A DNA stretch of 64,000 nucleotides from a phage. The translations under genes were made by a program, and so were the position numbers. The DNA is taken from the sequence record PZ445440.1. One strand, 5' to 3'. Below the pieces are notes generated by a model. It was not told the origin of the DNA and did no database searches. It saw only the letters and a list, made by a program, of their open reading frames with translations. Within the stretch, counting starts at the first letter, position 1. Every line of letters begins with the position of its first letter. Shown here in pieces: positions 26,367-41,860 of the stretch.

Positions 26367-26905
26367 TGCATTCCAATCACAAAAAATTGAGGACGAACCG
26401 TTTCACCTGTGTCCGCGTTATGGCTTCGACAACAGTGTTGTATTGTTTTGATATGGATGTCGTAAATCTTATCCATATCAGGAGCTTTAATAGGTTCATC
26501 AATTATATACAAGATACGAGAAAGCGATAATCCACGGAATTTATGACCTTCATTACCGATAAAGCTACGTAACGAATCGTGCCACAGACGGAATCGGATA
26601 TCTTCGTCACTAAAACGAATAAAATCATTTTTGATAGAATCGGCTGAAATTCTCGCATACGCCGAGGTATTAGACAGGACAATTACTGTACCACCGTCAT
26701 AAAGCCAATTAGCCGCAAAATTAATTACTGCGGTAGATTTGCCTGATTGACGTCCACCGTCTATACGAAGCGTACAGTACTGCTTGAGCAAGTCTTCAAT
26801 CGGTGGGACATAACCGTTCTTACAAATTTCTTCTACTCTAGCATCAGAATGGTGTGTAAAAGCATTCATCAGGGATAGATAAGGCCCAGTTAAAAATGTT
26901 CTCAT
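26363..26905 (-). CDS. P-loop NTPase-like protein (GGRQSGKST)
   Basis: ORF track 26363..26941; start moved to ATG 26905; Walker A-like motif. Confidence 0.6.
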   Translation of the reverse strand: MRTFLTGPYLSLMNAFTHHSDARVEEICKNGYVPPIEDLLKQYCTLRIDGGRQSGKSTAVINFAANWLYDGGTVIVLSNTSAYARISADSIKNDFIRFSDEDIRFRLWHDSLRSFIGNEGHKFRGLSLSRILYIIDEPIKAPDMDKIYDIHIKTIQHCCRSHNADTGETVRPQFFVIGMQ

Positions 26906-27083: not shown

Positions 27084-27662
27084 TTAATTACCACGGGCTG
27101 CATTAGCAACGGCGTAAGCGTACTGAACATTAGCGTCTTTAAACGTACCTTTAGAGGTATCTATTTCCGCCTTAAAGCCACCTTTAGCCATAACATCGGC
27201 AAATTCTTTACGGAAAGCCATTGCATCAAGACCTTTCCATGATGATTTATGCTTGGCAAATTCAAGACCGGCGTAGTTGACAGCCTTAGCTAATTTATTA
27301 TCAATAACCCATTTACCTGCTTTAGGCACAAACTTCGGGCCTTTTTGTTTAGAGAACAGTTTTAAATTCCAGCGACGAAGGTCACTGTCGGCTTTAACAA
27401 AAGCTGCGTCTAAGTTACTAGCAACAACATCTTCAATATGAGCAAATTTAAGTCCGTCAACTTCAATATTTAGATCGTTACGCCAGCGTAGTCCTTCCCA
27501 AGCGAAGGCTTTAAAATCAGAAGCTTTTGTGGCTAGATATCGTTCAAGTGGAGCAGTTTTAGGGTCAAAGCCGTTTCCGCCACGATAATTCCACTCGTCC
27601 TTATTAATGCCTTGAGCTTTTCCTGCAAAGGCCTCGGCGATAAATTCTTTATATGTTTTCAT
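27084..27662 (-). CDS. ipIII: internal head protein IPIII (capsid-targeting N-terminus MKTYKEFIAEA)
   Basis: 192 aa; near-identical over most of its length to recalled T4 IPIII. Confidence 0.9.
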   Translation of the reverse strand: MKTYKEFIAEAFAGKAQGINKDEWNYRGGNGFDPKTAPLERYLATKASDFKAFAWEGLRWRNDLNIEVDGLKFAHIEDVVASNLDAAFVKADSDLRRWNLKLFSKQKGPKFVPKAGKWVIDNKLAKAVNYAGLEFAKHKSSWKGLDAMAFRKEFADVMAKGGFKAEIDTSKGTFKDANVQYAYAVANAARGN

Positions 27663-27687
27663 TTTGTTCCTATTGATTTAATTTATG

Positions 27688-28002
27688 TTATTCTTTAGGG
27701 AAGTTTTTAGAGTATGCATCATAAAGTTTATTACCAATACGGCGGAAGACTTTAGCTGCAAAACGGTTTTCAGGGTTTTTAATCATGATTTGCATCATGT
27801 AAGTTCCTGCATCCGAAAGAGCTTCTTCGTAGTACCCATTAATTTCTTTAAGAGTCCTACGTTTACCGCCAGGACCATCAACAGTAATTTTCCATTTACC
27901 AGTAGAAGTGCGGCTCGGTGGTTCAACTTGTTCAATCCAAATATAACCACCTTCAACGCGTTGGTTGGCGGATTCTGCAATAAATTCTTTATACGTTTTC
28001 AT
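27688..28002 (-). CDS. ipII: internal head protein IPII-like (CTS MKTYKEFIAE)
   Basis: 104 aa; CTS N-terminus; position as in T4. Confidence 0.8.
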   Translation of the reverse strand: MKTYKEFIAESANQRVEGGYIWIEQVEPPSRTSTGKWKITVDGPGGKRRTLKEINGYYEEALSDAGTYMMQIMIKNPENRFAAKVFRRIGNKLYDAYSKNFPKE

Positions 28003-28065
28003 TTTTGTTTCCTTGTTTGTTTTGATAGAGTAATTATACCATATTAATACTTAAGCGTAAACAAT

Positions 28066-28326
28066 TTAAGCTTGACCGCCAGAAATAATTCCGAAGTTGT
28101 TAAAATCATGTCCAATATCGTCAACATCTACTTTAGGACTTGCTACAACATAAGCAATTTCACTACGTTTTGCATAGGTGTTGATTTCTTTACCATCGCC
28201 ACCTAAAAAAGAATACCCATTACGTTTTAATGAGCCAAAGTCTTCGGCATCACCAACGAAAGCTTTAACTTTAAATTTAGGACCTTTGGCAACTGCTTCA
28301 GCGATAAATTCTTGATACATTTTCAT
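28066..28326 (-). CDS. internal-protein-like small protein (CTS MKMYQEFIAEA)
   Basis: ORF track 28066..28392; start at ATG 28326 restores CTS consensus. Confidence 0.65.
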   Translation of the reverse strand: MKMYQEFIAEAVAKGPKFKVKAFVGDAEDFGSLKRNGYSFLGGDGKEINTYAKRSEIAYVVASPKVDVDDIGHDFNNFGIISGGQA

Positions 28327-28333
28327 TTTTCCC

Positions 28334-28747
28334 TTAGTAAATTGATTTACCATAGTATTTGTACCAAGTCGGACGTTGAGCAATTTTTTCATCTAAGCGT
28401 GCTTGACTTATCGCGATGGATGCTTCGGACGGGACGTAATTATTACGAAATTCTACAGGGATGTCGGAAATATCCTGGACTGTCGTGTCCTTGATTTTGA
28501 AACCACGTTTCAAACATTCAGCGATTAGCTCGATTTGACGTAAACGTAAAAATTCGAGTTTGTCGTAAAAGAATGTTACGTGACCTGTGCCTAAGATAAA
28601 TGTTGGAGAGATTTTAAAATCCTTTACACGTTTACCGTTTTGAACATGTTTACGGACTGCACCAAATATGCGTGGTAATTCACGATACTCAGCCATAAGA
28701 TGTTGGTCGGTCAGTTCAGAAACAAGTGTTAAATTGATACGGGTCAT
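28334..28747 (-). CDS. denV: endonuclease V (pyrimidine dimer DNA glycosylase) DenV
   Basis: ORF track 28334..28759; ATG 28747; [12 protein letters not shown]...AEYRELPR near-identical to recalled T4 DenV. Confidence 0.92.
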
Positions 28748-28805
28748 AATTTCCTCCAAGTAGTTGATGAATGTATAGTATCAAAACCCTTGGAGGAAGT
28801 AAACA

Positions 28806-29087
28806 CTATTTTTCTGAAGCGCCTGAAATATATTTTTCAAGACGTTGTTTCATCAACGAGCCGTTCTTAGCGATTTCTTCCGGTTTATCGCACATACGCA
28901 ACAATGCTTCAAGCTTAGCGATATCGCTGGTACGTTCAAATTTGCGAGTATCTATCTTACTAGCAAGTTCAGAAATACGTGCTAGTAGACTTTCGGCTTC
29001 AACCAAAGCTGCACCTAGCTTAGTTGCAAATGTGTCAGTAGCTTCGTTAAGAATAGATTCTGATAAAAATTCACTATATGTTTTCAT
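28806..29087 (-). CDS. internal-protein-like small protein ([13 protein letters not shown])
   Basis: ORF track 28806..29102; ATG 29087. Confidence 0.65.
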
Positions 29088-36445: not shown

Positions 36446-36751
36446 TTAATTTTTCCAACTTAACAACTTGTAGTGTCCTTCATTCATACGTGGTTTATCC
36501 CAAGAAATACTAATATATGATTCACCACCAATAGAAGTCGCCGGGTTTTTCTCTACCGTAAGACCTTCACTTTCCAGCCATTCAATAGTATTTGCGCATA
36601 AATCAGAAGAACACCTCATCGGGAACCGGCAAGATTTTTCACCTTTATCTGCAGTGTTATACATCTTTTCTAAAATGCGCTTTTGCACATTTTTAAAAAT
36701 AGTTTCAGCAGATTCTTCAGATTTTTTATTCAGTTCAGTATAAAGATTCAT
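36446..36751 (-). CDS. hypothetical protein (101 aa)
   Basis: ORF track. Confidence 0.6.
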   Translation of the reverse strand: MNLYTELNKKSEESAETIFKNVQKRILEKMYNTADKGEKSCRFPMRCSSDLCANTIEWLESEGLTVEKNPATSIGGESYISISWDKPRMNEGHYKLLSWKN

Positions 36752-36808
36752 AATATTCTTCTCATTAATAGGGCTCGTAATATCTCAATCATAAGCCCAT
36801 GTACGCGT

Positions 36809-37072
36809 TTATTTCATATTATCGAAATATTCTTCAGCGATTTCGTCATTATCATGGTAAACTTTAGAAGACAGTTTAACATAACCTTCTGCCGTGAACA
36901 TATTAATCACAACCTTTATAGTATACCACTGTCCGTCTTCATTACCCATTACTGCGTAAGTTTCAAACATCGGATGCTCAGGTCCAATAACTTTAATATC
37001 ATTCACCGTACGACTGAAATCTTCTGGAACGCATTTCATAAAGAAGTTGAACAGTTCACCGTAATTATCCAT
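36809..37072 (-). CDS. hypothetical protein (87 aa)
   Basis: ORF track 36809..37084 begins with TTG; ATG 37072 with GGAGAA upstream. Confidence 0.6.
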   Translation of the reverse strand: MDNYGELFNFFMKCVPEDFSRTVNDIKVIGPEHPMFETYAVMGNEDGQWYTIKVVINMFTAEGYVKLSSKVYHDNDEIAEEYFDNMK

Positions 37073-37211
37073 TTCATTCTCCAAGTTTTTTCTGTATCGG
37101 TAGTTGATAGTTGTATAGTACCACGGAAGAACAGGGATGTAAACAGTTTTGTGAAAAAAAAATTTTAAAAAAGTTTTGTGGAATTCTAGGGCAGGGAGAG
37201 GAAAGGCCTAG

Positions 37212-37250
37212 ATACCAAAAAGCCCTATCTAAATGATAGGGCTTAAAAAA
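37212..37250 (-). terminator. bidirectional-looking intrinsic terminator (AAGCCCTATC-n5-GATAGGGCTT with flanking A/T runs)
   Basis: Read in sequence. Confidence 0.5.
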
Positions 37251-37814
37251 TTATTTACCTAGTTTAGTTATTATAGCTTCGGCAGCAGCTTTTAGCTTAG
37301 ATGCAGTGTTAATACGATTTTTAATTTCAGTATACGCATCGCCAAGAACATCAAGGCTATCAGAATAAACACTTACACTATTGCGTTCGCTATTTGAAAT
37401 AGAACCTTTAGTTTTACGATCAAAATCAGTGTACACGTCTTGAAGATCACGGGCTGCCTTCTTTGCATCATCCAATGCATCAAGAGCTTTATTCAAAGCA
37501 TTGACATATTTTTTAGTGTCAAACATATTCTTAGAAATTTTAACAGGTGCACGTTCAGGAGTAGCTAAGGCGGATTTAGGAACCTGCGCGCCAGATGCCA
37601 GTTTCTTAGAAATTTTGAAAAACGCTTTATTGAAACTATTTTCTTGACTCATCGTAAAAGAACTAGTATCGATGTTATACATTTCAATAGCTTTGGCTTT
37701 CCACTTAAGAAAATCGCTACGGTCTTTTGGGTCTAAGTGGAAGAATACTTTAGTAAGATCTGCTTCAGATGGTAATTTTGCTGCTTCGGTTAAAAATTCG
37801 GCGTAGGTTTTCAT
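37251..37814 (-). CDS. internal-protein-like protein (CTS MKTYAEFLTEA), 187 aa
   Basis: ORF track; CTS-like N-terminus. Confidence 0.7.
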   Translation of the reverse strand: MKTYAEFLTEAAKLPSEADLTKVFFHLDPKDRSDFLKWKAKAIEMYNIDTSSFTMSQENSFNKAFFKISKKLASGAQVPKSALATPERAPVKISKNMFDTKKYVNALNKALDALDDAKKAARDLQDVYTDFDRKTKGSISNSERNSVSVYSDSLDVLGDAYTEIKNRINTASKLKAAAEAIITKLGK

Positions 37815-37936
37815 TTAAAATCCTTGAAATAATTTATCGGTTGGTTATTAATTATTTATCACATTGTTATATGTAACAGCATTCTCTGAGCGATTCAAAC
37901 TAAAAAGCCCCAACAGAAAGGTTTGGGCTAAGAATG

Positions 37937-38401
37937 TTATTTGATTTGTTTAGCAGACCAAATGCGGTCTTTAATAAGTTTTTGGATATCTTCAACATAC
38001 TCAAGGCTATGAGCGTGAGGATTATCTTTGAAACTATGTGCTCGTGCCAGTTTCTGGCCTTCTGTTTTGATTACTAAAAGCTCTTTAAGAATTGCTTCAT
38101 ACTTAGAAATAATTCCTTTGGCGATATTTTTTTCTTGAGCTGTTTTATGGTCCGCTTTTGGCACAGGTGCTTTACCTGTAGCTTTCTGGAACAATTCACC
38201 TGATGCAGCTAGGCTTTTAAAAACTCGGCTAACAGTATTAGCATTAGTAAAACCTTCGGCTTTAAAATCTCTAATAAAACGGAAACGTTCTTCATCGGAG
38301 GCGTCTTTGTAAGAATATTTACCTGCTTGAATTGCTGCAATCGCAGCGGCTTTTACATCTGAACTAGATTGTTCAGTCAAAAATTCAGCGTATGATTTCA
38401 T
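37937..38401 (-). CDS. internal-protein-like protein (CTS MKSYAEFLTE), 154 aa
   Basis: ORF track; CTS-like N-terminus. Confidence 0.7.
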   Translation of the reverse strand: MKSYAEFLTEQSSSDVKAAAIAAIQAGKYSYKDASDEERFRFIRDFKAEGFTNANTVSRVFKSLAASGELFQKATGKAPVPKADHKTAQEKNIAKGIISKYEAILKELLVIKTEGQKLARAHSFKDNPHAHSLEYVEDIQKLIKDRIWSAKQIK

Positions 38402-38447
38402 GTTGCTTTTCCTAAGTTAATTAACTTATCTATTTATTATGCCAAAA

Positions 38448-38471
38448 AGCCCCAACCGTAAGGAAGGGGCT
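38448..38471 (-). terminator. terminator-like hairpin (AGCCCC-n12-GGGGCT + T-run)
   Basis: Read in sequence. Confidence 0.45.
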
Positions 38472-38782
38472 AAGCCTTGCGGCAACCTTGTCGGGGTTCC
38501 ACCTGCTAAGGCAAGTGTTTGTACGAAACGCCGGGATTTGAACCCGGTTATCAAGCAGTTGACGCTACTCAATATTTTTAAAAGGCCATATCTCGACCAT
38601 ATCCGAACGTTCCGTCAAAAACGCTACTCGGCTTACGGCAAAGATATTTCCTCGAATCGATAATTCTGTGCGCCGTTTCTGCTGTGATGTAAGGGGATAT
38701 TAACAAATCATAAAGATTTATTAAGACCAGTCCTTACTCAGGGAACATCAGTCCGACGACTTGCCGGTAGCGACCCGGCTTC

Positions 38783-39127
38783 TTATTTTGACATATCATC
38801 AATTTGTTCTCTACGTCTACGCCATAGATTAATTACTTCATCAACACATTCGGCGTTTGATATATGACGGCAATAATATAATGATTCGCGTTTCTGGAAC
38901 CGATGTTGCAATGGGATTTCGTTTAAAAGGTCTTTACGGTCAAAGTATTCAAAACTAGTTAACCCGGAACGGTTTTTAATGAACTTCCAATGTCCAAATT
39001 CATTTTGAACATAGATGTAATCGGCATGCTGATACAGCGAATTAATCAATCGATGAGAAATAACTGTATCATATTCGTTAAAATAAAACGTTAAATCATG
39101 AACTACTAGATAAATATTGCCTTTCAT
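38783..39127 (-). CDS. hypothetical protein (114 aa)
   Basis: ORF track 38783..39175 would overlap the tRNA; ATG 39127 with GAGGAAA upstream. Confidence 0.55.
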   Translation of the reverse strand: MKGNIYLVVHDLTFYFNEYDTVISHRLINSLYQHADYIYVQNEFGHWKFIKNRSGLTSFEYFDRKDLLNEIPLQHRFQKRESLYYCRHISNAECVDEVINLWRRRREQIDDMSK

Positions 39128-39145
39128 ATTTTCCTCACTTAAAGT

Positions 39146-39222
<77 letters not shown>

Positions 39223-39228
39223 AATATA

Positions 39229-39302
39229 TGACCCAGACCAGATTCGAACTGGTAACCTTTCCCTTATGAGGGGACTGCTGCTAACCATTGAGCTACAGGG
39301 CC
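39229..39302 (-). tRNA. tRNA with anticodon CAU (Met or lysidine-type Ile), no encoded CCA
   Basis: Manual fold: GGCCCTGTAGCTCAATGG 5-prime, anticodon loop CTCATAA, T arm ACCAG-TTCGAAT-CTGGT; one acceptor mismatch; coordinates +/-2. Confidence 0.6.
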
Positions 39303-39381
39303 TAAATAACTTTCTATTATGAAAGGCACTTTAGAGCACCTTTGGTAATAGAGGGTATGAATTAATAATAACACATAATTC

Positions 39382-39897
39382 TTAAAGCAAATCAATCATT
39401 TTAACAGTTGGCAAAACGATTTCTTCTTCAATATAAGCAAATTCAACACATTCAACTACACGCAAGAAATCATAATCATAATATTCAGAAGCATGGCCAA
39501 GAATACCAACGAGACCTTCTGATACTAAATATCCATTCTCACGGAACAGGTCGAATACACGCGATTCGTCTTCTTCAGATTTATTACCAAGGTCGACTTC
39601 AATATCAAAGACCTTTTTAATGAATTCTGGATAAAGCTGGTCTGAGAACAGTCCTTCAACCAAGTATTCATAAATTAAAAGCGAGCAATCACTGAATGGT
39701 GTATTACCACAGTAACGTTCAGCTTTAGTGCTAGAATGACTGCTCTTAAATTTCTTCAAGAGATATTTAAACTGTTGGAGCTCATGCTCTTCCACTTCAA
39801 ACAATGTTTTGGTTTTATAGTTGTCACCATCATTTTCATAGGTAGTGACATCAATTACGTAGCCCTTAGGAATTGTACTGCCTAAACAAATATTCAT
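39382..39897 (-). CDS. hypothetical protein (171 aa)
   Basis: ORF track. Confidence 0.65.
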   Translation of the reverse strand: MNICLGSTIPKGYVIDVTTYENDGDNYKTKTLFEVEEHELQQFKYLLKKFKSSHSSTKAERYCGNTPFSDCSLLIYEYLVEGLFSDQLYPEFIKKVFDIEVDLGNKSEEDESRVFDLFRENGYLVSEGLVGILGHASEYYDYDFLRVVECVEFAYIEEEIVLPTVKMIDLL

Positions 39898-39901
39898 TTA
39901 C

Positions 39902-40192
39902 TCACCGTACCATATTAATGTAATTATATTCAATGCAACGTAATTTCAAAGGATTCTTGAAAATATCATATTCAAGAGGGCCTTTTTCTGTTTCAATAAA
40001 GAAATCAAAGTTAACTGTGTTAAATTTATCGTCTTCACAGAGTAATTTAACTTGCGAAGATGAACGGTCGATGTAAACCTTTTCAACTTCAAAATTAGTT
40101 AGAATACCGTAGTCATTAACTAGTGCTTTAGCTGCACGTTGATCGCTTTCATATCCATTCTCGACAGATTTTACTTTAGCATAAAGAATCAT
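39902..40192 (-). CDS. hypothetical protein (96 aa)
   Basis: ORF track. Confidence 0.6.
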   Translation of the reverse strand: MILYAKVKSVENGYESDQRAAKALVNDYGILTNFEVEKVYIDRSSSQVKLLCEDDKFNTVNFDFFIETEKGPLEYDIFKNPLKLRCIEYNYINMVR

Positions 40193-40551
40193 GAGTGTTC
40201 CACCACTTCAAAGGTATGAGCATCAACAATATGATACCAGTCAAAATTTTCTTCCGCGTTTTTATAAATTTCGCGAAGAGCTTCAACAGTTTTTCCTGTA
40301 GCAACAAGATCATCAATACCACCAAGAGGATAACAGTCATAACCAGCAAACAGAAGGAAATTAATAGTTTCTGTAGGGGCCGGATGCAGTGTACCATTGT
40401 CATCGACTACTTCAAAGAACATATAACCAGGCGATTTAGATTTAATCCAAGCCCATGCTTGAGCTGCTGAATCAAATGGTCTGCGTATCAAACGACAATC
40501 AGGGTCTTTAGAAGGATTTGCTTCAAAATCCGCGTATACGTGATATTTCAT
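40189..40551 (-). CDS. hypothetical protein (120 aa)
   Basis: ORF track 40189..40569; ATG 40551 with AAAGGTGAG upstream. Confidence 0.6.
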   Translation of the reverse strand: MKYHVYADFEANPSKDPDCRLIRRPFDSAAQAWAWIKSKSPGYMFFEVVDDNGTLHPAPTETINFLLFAGYDCYPLGGIDDLVATGKTVEALREIYKNAEENFDWYHIVDAHTFEVVEHS

Positions 40552-40552
40552 T

Positions 40553-40738
40553 TTACTCACCTTTTGCAATTTTATCCATAACGATAGCGATTAAGCCGAT
40601 TAGAAATGCTACTACCAATGAGATAGAGTTTTCAGTTGTTGTCAGTAGTCCGCAAATGAATCCTACAAACATCGAAAAACTAAAAGCCATTGAAGCAATT
40701 ACTACAGCAACATTACGAATCAGTTCAGCGCGTTTCAT
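40553..40738 (-). CDS. small membrane protein (61 aa)
   Basis: ORF track 40553..40759; second ATG in ATGGAGAAATAAAATG leader. Confidence 0.55.
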   Translation of the reverse strand: MKRAELIRNVAVVIASMAFSFSMFVGFICGLLTTTENSISLVVAFLIGLIAIVMDKIAKGE

Positions 40739-40766
40739 TTTATTTCTCCATTTACTCATTTTGTTC

Positions 40767-40810
40767 TGATAGGACTACTATAACATAGTCCTATCAGCAT
40801 GTAAACTACT
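40767..40810 (-). promoter_or_regulatory. early promoter with stem-loop (GTTTAC ... TTATAG in GATAGGACTA/TAGTCCTATC repeat)
   Basis: Read in sequence. Confidence 0.5.
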
Positions 40811-41097
40811 TACAGAAGAGTTTTTGCAATAATTTTAAGCTGAGCTACAGAAATATGCTTAGCTTTAAACAGTGCAGTCTCTTCAGCGGGAGAGATAACA
40901 ATAGTAGCGCCATCTTTCTTAGCGGACCACCCGTCTCCTAAGTAAACAGTACCTTTTACTTCTTCGCCGTCAACCAGACTAATCATTGGTTTACCCTCAC
41001 GTCCTTTATTTGCTTTAATAACTTCGGAAGTAAGGGTTGCTTCGGTCAGAGTAGAAACGTTAGCAACAGGTGATATAAATTCTTTATAGGTTTTCAT
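40810..41097 (-). CDS. ipI: internal head protein IPI-like (CTS MKTYKEFISP)
   Basis: 95 aa; CTS N-terminus; position next to 57B as in T4. Confidence 0.7.
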   Translation of the reverse strand: MKTYKEFISPVANVSTLTEATLTSEVIKANKGREGKPMISLVDGEEVKGTVYLGDGWSAKKDGATIVISPAEETALFKAKHISVAQLKIIAKTLL

Positions 41098-41174
41098 TTT
41101 ATTTCCTTGAGGTTGTTTATTTGATAGGATGATAGTATCACACCATCATCCTTATGTAAACTGTTTTGTGAAAA

Positions 41175-41860
<686 letters not shown>

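Follow-up and report, generated by a model that had tools for sequence, protein, structure and literature searches.

The region at positions 27084-29087 of the phage DNA analysed here raises the question of why several small genes begin with the same residues, and of what the proteins behind this shared start may do. In the first-pass annotation these genes were taken, with three genes further along, as an expanded family of capsid-targeted internal proteins. The window, i.e. the whole stretch of 64,000 nucleotides that was analysed, is 100% identical to part of the genome of Escherichia phage ChristianSchoenbein (Bas46, Mosigvirus; MZ501056.1), window positions being record positions minus 105509. 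A six-frame scan of this 64-kb window gives exactly seven matches to MK.Y.EF, all on the negative strand (at 27662, 28002, 28326, 29087, 37814, 38401, and 41097), each at or near the start of an open reading frame with the annotated end. Mononucleotide shuffles yield 0.005 such matches per window by chance. Seven genes starting with MK(T/S/M)Y(K/A/Q/S)EF(I/L) had been reported, and both their count and their coordinates are borne out by the scan. Across the entire 169-kb Bas46 genome exactly seven ORFs have the N-terminus MK(T/S/M)Y.EF(I/L). Outside the window neither the strict pattern nor a relaxed one (M[KR].[YFW].[EDQN][FLIMW]) gives a further match, so the motif marks these seven genes alone and is not a genome-wide N-terminal feature.

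The shared N-terminus is the capsid targeting sequence (CTS) of T4, as had been proposed. Tyr4 and Phe7, the targeting residues, are present in all seven proteins, as is an I/L-x-E site for the gp21 protease. Mullaney & Black (1996), as given in PMC9026906, assigned targeting by the T4 CTS to Tyr4 and Phe7 and processing to I/L8 and Glu10; the first 10 residues suffice to load foreign proteins into T4 heads (PMC9026906). The gp21 site occupies residues 8-10 in six of the Bas46 proteins (IAE, IAE, IAE, LSE, LTE, and LTE) and residues 17-19 (LTE) in the orthologue of T4 IPI, and is directly followed by A, S or Q in all seven. In T4 the CTS is the same (MKTYQEFIAE in IPII and IPIII), with the same I/L-x-E gp21 site. 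Loading into the prohead in the T4 manner, also part of the earlier proposal, requires a gp21 protease and a gp22 scaffold, and genes for both are present in the same genome outside the window (bas46_0008, Peptidase_S77, E 3e-107; bas46_0009, T4_CASP, E 2e-89), where gp67 is also encoded.

Two of the seven genes have direct orthologues in T4. The ipIII orthologue (27084..27662, negative strand) encodes 192 aa beginning MKTYKEFIAE/A, the slash marking the cleavage site here and below. It matches phrog_5341 ('internal virion protein', E 4e-117), is 91.7% identical to T4 IPIII over 192/193 residues and 93% identical in the mature part, and is annotated as 'internal head protein' in MZ501056.1. 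By orthology with T4 Ip3, whose function is reported in PMC12373910 and PMC9391042, it is likely to inhibit a GmrS1/GmrSD2-type type IV restriction enzyme (GmrSD-ECOR17). The ipI orthologue (40810..41097, negative strand; 95 aa) has a longer propeptide, MKTYKEFISPVANVSTLTE/A, and its mature form, IPI*, comprises residues 20-95. Matches to PF11634 (IPI_T4; E 1e-50, 169.7 bits against a cutoff of 25) and to PDB 2JUB (E 5.8e-42) both cover residues 20-95, beginning exactly past the LTE site, and the mature part is 94% identical to T4 IPI. The protein would by orthology be an inhibitor of GmrSD (CT596-type); such inhibition is reported for T4 IPI, and an anti-GmrSD role is stated for RB69 IPI (PMC6024577), to which the Bas46 protein is identical.

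Three further genes lie in the e/denV region. The product of the gene at 27688..28002 (negative strand; 104 aa, MKTYKEFIAE/S; phrog_3966) clusters at 90% identity with Ip10 of Enterobacteria phage Pol (CAA84455.1), and its identity to the SP18 (Shigella phage) Ip10 is 72%. On this sequence evidence the gene is identified as Ip10, with homologues in 190 phage records. The UniRef name 'IpII' on its cluster is a misnomer, because T4 IPII resembles none of the seven outside the tag, and tblastn with it against window positions 22000-46000 is empty. An AF2 model of Ip10 from a 3-sequence alignment was unusable (pLDDT 47). The gene ip28066 (28066..28326, negative strand; 86 aa, MKMYQEFIAE/A) is the orthologue of RB69ORF125c and matches phrog_2667 ('internal head protein', E 9e-21) with an alignment from residue 1; it has homologues in 215 phage records, some of them labelled 'internal head protein'. 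Its GenBank start is an upstream ATG at 28392, 59 nt inside denV. This start is probably wrong and the CTS methionine at 28326 the better one, since the latter lies 7 nt past the denV stop codon and is the start used for RB69ORF125c and in the phrog_2667 profile. In ip28806 (28806..29087, negative strand; 93 aa) the start codon overlaps, as ATGA, with the stop codon of the endolysin gene, e. Its protein has two tandem L-x-E sites, residues 1-10 being followed by /SILNE/A, and matches phrog_3499 ('internal head protein', E 2e-46), with 497 phage records and cluster names that include 'Internal head protein'.

The remaining two genes, ip37251 (37251..37814, negative strand; 187 aa, MKTYAEFLTE/A) and ip37937 (37937..38401, negative strand; 154 aa, MKSYAEFLTE/Q), both match phrog_2280, of 'unknown function' (E 1e-53 and 4e-52, respectively). 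The former is placed between e.8 and the rnaC/rnaD-tRNA cluster; Rfam finds two tRNAs only in 36500-41500. Of the 165 phage records with a homologue of ip37251, 163 show 95-99% identity and come mostly from Tequatrovirus; ip37937 has homologues in 512. Both are 'hypothetical' in all records listed, as are all listed cluster names for ip37251, and no internal-protein label for the phrog_2280 genes appears among the records, cluster names and PHROG entries listed. In distant relatives of ip37937 (34-48% identity) the N-terminus M-x-x-[YF]-x-E-F-[LV] is kept while the rest diverges, and Glu at residue 10 is kept in three of the four listed. The protein g140 of Yersinia phage fD1, 75% identical to ip37937, was detected in purified virions by LC-MS/MS, and fD1 g129 and g146 (IPI) are likewise flagged as virion-associated by mass spectrometry, in a dataset whose specificity is low, as 113 proteins are flagged in it, Tk, DenV, and NudE among them. 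An AF2 model of ip37937 (pLDDT 74.5) is predicted to be all-helical with two domains. Foldseek searches with it return nothing with E < 0.9 in the PDB, where only ferritin-like helical noise is seen, and its own family only in BFVD.

The seven had been described as a family of divergent paralogs. This description does not hold for the mature parts, which have no detectable mutual similarity: once the tag is removed, no pair among the seven gives a significant BLAST match. For the two phrog_2280 proteins BLASTP aligns the tag only, hhalign gives a weak C-terminal match of 24 residues (probability 27%), and the ip37251 family was absent from the results of a profile search over 1.84 billion representatives. 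PHROG families of the 'internal head/virion protein' kind cover five of the seven proteins, and the Bas46 record itself gives 'hypothetical protein' for five of the genes. Pfam, NCBIfam and PDB hold no match to the mature domains of the five non-T4 cargoes; CsgH, cytochrome b562, filamin, and HLA came up as candidate relatives in these databases and were set aside as sub-threshold noise. Word-indexed homologue searches yielded 8 and 3 proteins only, so the homologue alignments are shallow. With no sequence match, and with the sole usable model lacking a structural analogue, neither sequence nor fold points to a target for the five cargoes.

The seven are very probably T-even ip genes, encoding anti-defence cargo that is loaded by the CTS, processed by gp21 and co-injected with the DNA. 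Each product bears a CTS of about 10 residues, which would bind the gp22-based scaffolding core in the assembling prohead, so that tens to hundreds of copies become enclosed. The gp21 protease would then cut behind the Glu of I/L-x-E (Glu10 in six of the proteins, Glu19 in the IPI orthologue), and the released mature cargo would stay beside the DNA inside the head. On infection it would leave the head along with the DNA, enter the next host before any phage gene is expressed, and there disarm first-line, DNA-targeting defences. Recombination within the tag-coding sequence that the genes share, and within the repeated promoter/terminator modules on either side of the cassettes, would keep the repertoire variable.

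Targeting, cleavage, and injection are known from T4 and its relatives, and T4 Ip1, Ip2, and Ip3 inhibit distinct GmrSD type IV enzymes (PMC12373910). The idea of injected anti-defence effectors, offered as plausible in the first-pass annotation, has thus been demonstrated experimentally for these three proteins. It has also been demonstrated for Bas37_0260, a non-homologous, CTS-bearing McrBC inhibitor, and so anti-type-IV factor, of another BASEL T-even phage (HIDEN-SEQ preprint, 10.1101/2025.11.20.689424); it is an established paradigm. Bas37_0260 has the same N-terminal signal as the Bas46 seven. By extension, the five non-T4 proteins of Bas46 would be packaged and injected too, and would counter host defences, the most likely targets being type IV enzymes specific for the arabinosylated cytosine DNA of this phage. 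The DNA of Bas46 contains arabinosylated cytosine, whereas that of T4 contains glucosyl-hmC. The CTS proteins are the phage's first answer to restriction, because they reach the host before phage gene expression; arriving with the DNA, they help to set host range and are relevant to phage therapy cocktails. The set is ordinary and the gain in annotation modest, the principle being known and only the assignment of some members new. The five 'hypothetical' genes are candidates for new defence-inhibitor pairs in Bas46, a laboratory model with unusual DNA modification, for which transposon and Cas13 tools are available.

More tentatively, the phrog_2280 pair (37251-37814, 37937-38401) may form a third ip hotspot. 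Together with the other three non-T4 cargoes it could encode injected inhibitors of defences not yet paired with a phage inhibitor, e.g. type IV enzymes recognising arabinosylated hydroxycytosine DNA, and the number of unrelated cargo families with a CTS could be several times the usual figure of 'at least 10'. This extension is possible, if doubtful; a scan of IMG/VR gives at least 47 CTS clusters in T4-like loci.

Some of the five uncharacterised cargoes might instead be injected host-takeover effectors acting on transcription, metabolism or the envelope, like the co-packaged Alt ADP-ribosyltransferase. Alt is packaged and injected in T4 (PMC9026906), and its gene is present in the Bas46 genome. 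Moreover, a DPBB_1 lytic-transglycosylase-like domain is present in one CTS-type ORF from a T4-like locus of the IMG/VR sample, and cargo is therefore not limited to restriction inhibitors. However, none of the seven Bas46 proteins has an enzyme domain, and all CTS proteins whose function has been established to date are inhibitors of type IV restriction systems, which makes a takeover role unlikely. The composition of the mature proteins bears on another explanation, by which the tagged proteins are packaged and mainly serve the virion itself, in neutralisation of DNA charge, in condensation or packaging, or in ejection. Four of the seven are strongly basic (pI 9.5-9.6), and the T4 internal proteins are abundant, at about 300 copies each, and bind DNA at low salt, with lysines touching DNA phosphates (PMC9026906, PMC3012670). 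Against a mainly structural service, ip28066 and ip28806 are near-neutral (pI 6.8 and 6.3), each of the three T4 internal proteins has a specific defence target that the others do not share (PMC12373910), and the repertoire varies between close relatives, which argues against a conserved structural job; we consider this explanation decidedly unlikely. It is hardly credible that the common start of the seven proteins reflects translation, the mRNA or mere chance; a translational feature had been allowed for in the first-pass annotation itself. In favour of this reading, the first codons (ATGAAA...GAATTT) are conserved at the DNA level among the seven genes. Against it, synonymous codons vary across the tags while the amino acids are kept, the motif is confined to 7 ORFs of the 169-kb genome against the chance rate given above, about 116 of the 126 IMG/VR CTS matches listed have I or L at residue 8 even though the pattern allowed any NTN codon, and ten N-terminal residues are enough for loading in T4.

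The ip genes lie in hyperplastic regions and vary among close relatives. Bas46 shares with T4 the ip neighbourhoods of the e/denV region and of the 57B/trna.4 region. The gene order is e-ipIII-ipII-denV in T4 and e-ip28806-denV-ip28066-Ip10-ipIII in Bas46, and the third ip site of Bas46, with two genes between e.8 and rnaC/rnaD, has no ip gene in T4. Bas46 has five further cargoes that are missing from T4, and in this respect the set is expanded, as was first suggested. It is not expanded relative to RB69, the type Mosigvirus, which has seven CTS ORFs in the same loci (ipI, ORF156c, ORF149c, ORF127c, ORF125c, ORF124c, and ORF123c). The Bas46 set is therefore not unusual, and seven appears from this sequence comparison to be the normal number of CTS genes for Mosigvirus, RB69 being the compared member. 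RB69 has orthologues of ip37251 (ORF149c, truncated in the deposited sequence), ip28806, ip28066, and Ip10.

Bas46 and RB69 differ at three places, and at all three the junctions lie in CTS-coding sequence or terminator repeats. ORF123c of RB69 occupies the place of Bas46 ipIII, RB69 has the extra ORF156c adjoining ipI, and it lacks the ip37937 cassette. In blastn the two genomes match from 29700 down to 27637, at 97% identity, with no further match until 27004. The match thus stops at the CTS-coding 5' end of ipIII (27637..27662, negative strand), and this is where the crossover of a cargo swap is placed. The body of ipIII is 89% identical to T4 and the flanking e, denV, and vs.8 genes 76-79%. 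The ip37937 cassette is bounded by two copies of a 13-nt direct repeat, GTTGGGGCTTTTT, which is the 3' half of a terminator hairpin, on the negative strand. The upstream copy lies at 38444..38456 and the downstream copy (37902..37914) at the 3' end of the cassette; RB69 has a single copy, without the cassette of about 530 bp. Junctions at tag-coding sequence or at repeated terminator hairpins fit a shuffling of cassettes. Shuffling of PeSL and IP in T-even phages is described in PMC4122927.

That ip repertoires vary has been on record since 1994, according to the accounts in PMC12373910, PMC3012670, PMC4122927, and PMC9026906. Repoila et al. (1994), according to papers that cite this work, reported polymorphic T-even ip genes of the Ip4-Ip13 type, which include Ip10 of phages Pol and SP18. 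That set and the Bas46 set follow the same principle of unrelated small cargoes behind a conserved CTS, swapped among related phages. In the 1994 nomenclature the gene at 27688-28002 is Ip10, and no database name listed ties the phrog_2280 proteins to the numbered Ips.

Among IMG/VR hits with enzyme domains, a SAM lyase, an SNF2+methylase fusion, and Acb1-like, CHAP, MPTase, DHH, and ExoX-like proteins were considered as CTS cargo and none was counted. The loci with SNF2+methylase (L124), DHH (L036), and ExoX-like (L019) hits have 0-1 T4-like neighbours. In a scan of 20 representatives from T4-like loci, each of at least 100 aa, no SAM lyase, Acb1-like, CHAP or MPTase protein is seen.

Beyond the T-even phages, the Dar proteins of P1, the ejection proteins of P22, and the inner-body proteins of SPN3US and phiKZ are also carried inside the head and enter the host with the DNA; anti-restriction proteins are among them, as are substrates of a prohead protease. 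These injected proteins use other targeting signals and assembly partners and are not known to be related in sequence to the Bas46 seven.

As to the transcription of the ip genes, no exact copy of the late promoter consensus TATAAATA is present directly upstream of any of the seven, where there are near-matches only; the window holds 5 such sites against 8.7 expected. This absence is uninformative, since T4 ipI, ipII, and ipIII likewise have no late promoter directly upstream and have early-type promoters instead. T4-early-type promoter-like sites are seen in Bas46 at 28061-28033 for the Ip10 gene and at 41160-41132 for the ipI orthologue.

Between window positions 26900 and 29700 the sequence matches Escherichia phage ChristianSchoenbein (BASEL collection phage Bas46; MZ501056.1) at 100% identity, window coordinates being those of the record less 105509; the phage is classified as Straboviridae, Tevenvirinae, Mosigvirus phapec2. 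The neighbourhood corresponds to T4's regB-vs-denV-e-nudE-e.x-tRNA-ipI-57B-57A-1-3-2 block, its proteins being 35-93% identical to their T4 counterparts. A six-frame scan of the 64-kb window for MK.Y.EF returned exactly seven matches, all on the minus strand and each opening an ORF (86-192 codons), versus 0.005 matches per window expected from shuffled sequence; the seven MK(T/S/M)Y-type gene starts proposed by the first-pass annotation are thus borne out at their coordinates. That the motif might instead be a genome-wide N-terminal habit is contradicted by strict and relaxed pattern scans of the remaining Bas46 genome, in which no further MK.Y.EF ORF was found.

Within the tag codons only ATGAAA, TA, GAATTT and a few adjacent bases are invariant while synonymous positions vary, so that it is the peptide that is under selection. 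For T4 IPIII, the 10 N-terminal residues suffice for prohead loading, with residues 4 and 7 serving targeting and 8 and 10 processing by the prohead protease gp21 (Mullaney and Black 1996, as summarised in PMC9026906; also PMC3012670). Tyr4 and Phe7 are present in all seven proteins, and I/L8 with Glu10 in six (IAE three times, LSE once, LTE twice). In the IPI orthologue, as in T4 IPI, the propeptide is longer and its terminal LTE occupies residues 17-19; alignments of this protein to Pfam IPI_T4 and to the solved structure of IPI* (2JUB) both begin at residue 20, directly after this site. The Bas46 genome also encodes the mechanism's partners, namely Peptidase_S77 (gp21), the T4_CASP scaffold (gp22), gp67 and Alt. 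The capsid-targeting mechanism first proposed is the textbook one.

After removal of the first 10 residues, none of the pairwise BLAST comparisons among the seven cargoes gave a significant match, therefore the proteins are not paralogues. By this measure the tag is shared but the cargoes are unrelated, like those of T4, and the earlier framing as an expanded family of paralogs was wrong, seven also being typical for the genus. Five come from families that already bear an internal-protein name or label: ipIII (27084-27662; 92-93% identical to T4 IPIII), an Ip10 family member (27688-28002; in a 90% cluster with 'Ip10' of phage Pol and 72% identical to SP18 Ip10), ip28066 (28066-28326) and ip28806 (28806-29087), both 'internal head protein' in PHROG and in some GenBank records, and ipI (40810-41097), whose mature part is 94% identical to T4 IPI and which is identical to RB69 IPI. 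The other two, ip37251 (37251-37814; 165 phage records) and ip37937 (37937-38401; 512 phage records), match phrog_2280, 'unknown function', and are 'hypothetical protein' in every record row and cluster name examined. No T4 IPII homologue was found here.

The start of ip28066 is placed by GenBank (bas46_0218) at an ATG at 28392, inside denV, adding 22 residues before the capsid targeting sequence (CTS; window 28327-28392). The CTS ATG lies at 28326, 7 nt past the denV stop codon, and is the start common to the RB69ORF125c annotation and the phrog_2667 profile; it is likely the true start, preferable to that of GenBank. The ip28806 start codon overlaps the stop codon of endolysin gene e (ATGA, 29084-29087), which suggests that the two genes are co-transcribed and translationally coupled.

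RB69, the type Mosigvirus, likewise carries seven CTS-type ORFs at the same loci (ipI, ORF156c, ORF149c, ORF127c, ORF125c, ORF124c and ORF123c), so that seven ip genes are typical for the genus, not unusual. In RB69 as deposited (AY303349; locus L006, 15917-16198 and 7130-7692), ORF127c has a garbled tag reading MKTYMNFYQNLSLNE, unlike Bas46, ORF149c is truncated and with ORF148c resembles a single frameshift-split orthologue of ip37251, and ORF124c ends early; these anomalies probably stem from sequencing errors in this record of 2003.

Bas46 and RB69 share 97% identity over 29700-27637; this stretch ends 26 nt inside ipIII, just beyond its tag codons, and from there to 27004 similarity is absent. 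Identity to T4 is 89% in the body of ipIII, compared with 76-79% in the flanking genes e, denV and vs.8. From these alignments, ipIII is a cargo swap with the crossover within the tag-coding sequence. At the ipI locus RB69 has an extra ORF156c cassette bounded by a repeat of ~55 nt (ribosome-binding region plus tag codons), and ip37937 lies on a segment of ~530 bp missing from RB69 and flanked by a 13-nt direct repeat, GTTGGGGCTTTTT, each copy being the 3' half of a terminator hairpin. T4-early-type promoter-like sites (TTTAC. N17 TAYWAT, upstream TG) precede Ip10 and ipI, as they do T4 ipI, ipII and ipIII. The junctions and promoter-like sites match the shuffling of promoter/stem-loop (PeSL) modules and of IP loci that Krisch and colleagues describe (PMC4122927). 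Between genera, ip37251 shows 95-99% identity in 163 records, mostly Tequatrovirus, and ip28806 is ~99% identical in Tequatrovirus Bas45, the nearby core genes diverging far more between Mosigvirus and Tequatrovirus. This suggests recent exchange of these cassettes between the genera, although recombination of RB69-type phages with T4 is reported not to occur.

Searched against 1.84 billion representatives, an ip37937-family profile retrieved only ten proteins. Four distant relatives (34-48% identity) begin MLKFNEFLAE, MLEYSEFLKE, MKFKEFLIE and MISFNEFVDG, keeping the tag core with a divergent or partly replaced body. The product of g140 of Yersinia phage fD1 is 75% identical to ip37937 (N-terminus MKSYTQFLNE) and, with g129 (MKTYQEFITE) and g146 (IPI), was flagged particle-associated by LC-MS/MS of purified virions; since that list holds 113 proteins, some clearly non-structural, this lends weak support to ip37937 packaging. 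The moderately confident AF2 model of ip37937 is all-helical with two domains, and no structural analogue was found beyond its own family. Homology between ip37251 and ip37937 is unproven from sequence, despite their common phrog_2280 match. In two homologues (P0071 and P0073) the family's N-terminal three-helix domain (AGKYSYKD..SDESRFQFARDMKAEGF) is joined to different C-terminal parts, therefore cargo domains are themselves shuffled. In a 94-aa metagenomic chimera (P0008) the N-terminal part resembles the trna.3-like protein at 40189-40569 and the final 30 residues agree with the ip37937-family C-terminus at all but one position, which points to recombination or deletion between these loci in some phage.

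T4 Ip1, Ip2 and Ip3 are inhibitors of three distinct GmrSD type IV restriction enzymes, one each, and do not cross-protect (PMC12373910). IPIII is needed on ECOR17 and is active without its CTS if supplied inside the cell (PMC9391042), the unrelated CTS protein Bas37_0260 protects against McrBC (10.1101/2025.11.20.689424), and RB69 IPI, the same sequence as Bas46 IPI, is stated to prevent GmrSD restriction (PMC6024577). Bas46 DNA reportedly carries arabinosylated hydroxycytosine, and its genes include arabinosyltransferase and UDP-arabinose genes. By analogy with these roles, and given this modification, the five uncharacterised cargoes most likely inhibit modification-dependent nucleases or other first-line defences; Pfam, NCBIfam and PDB searches and one model gave no target clue in sequence or fold. 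The gain is one of annotation: MZ501056.1 labels just two of the seven genes as internal head proteins, and five 'hypothetical' genes of a model phage become concrete candidate injected anti-defence proteins, two of them (ip37251 and ip37937) from families without an internal-protein label in the annotations examined.

A search of IMG/VR with a strict tag-coding pattern gave at least 136 matches in at least 120 loci. Among the matches listed (loci L008-L127), 126 of 136 stand at the start of an ORF of 50 codons or more, 110 of the 126 without an in-frame ATG further upstream. About 116 of these 126 have I or L at residue 8, though the pattern allowed any NTN codon, and A or S predominates at residue 11. 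At least 69 loci have two or more T4-like neighbour genes and hold at least 85 tagged ORFs. By their mature regions these ORFs fall into at least 47 unrelated clusters, in which the pattern marks true gene starts; the number commonly cited is 'at least 10', well below this. Two of 20 scanned uncharacterised representatives (at least 100 aa) scored above the Pfam cutoff (DUF6321, DPBB_1). Other matches bear enzyme domains. Those with SAM lyase, Acb1-like, CHAP and MPTase domains were absent among the T4-like-locus representatives scanned, and the three that were mapped (SNF2 plus methylase, DHH, ExoX-like) have 0-1 T4-like neighbours in their loci; none of these matches is counted as CTS cargo.

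The intergenic stretch 38466-38782 (minus strand) has no annotation in MZ501056.1 and no Rfam match; it shares 92% identity with rnaC/rnaD, the stable RNAs of T4 (species 1 and 2), and 97% with the equivalent gap in RB69. Only two tRNA genes, Arg-UCU and a CAU-anticodon tRNA annotated as Ile, occupy 39146-39302, where T4 has eight tRNA genes plus segB.
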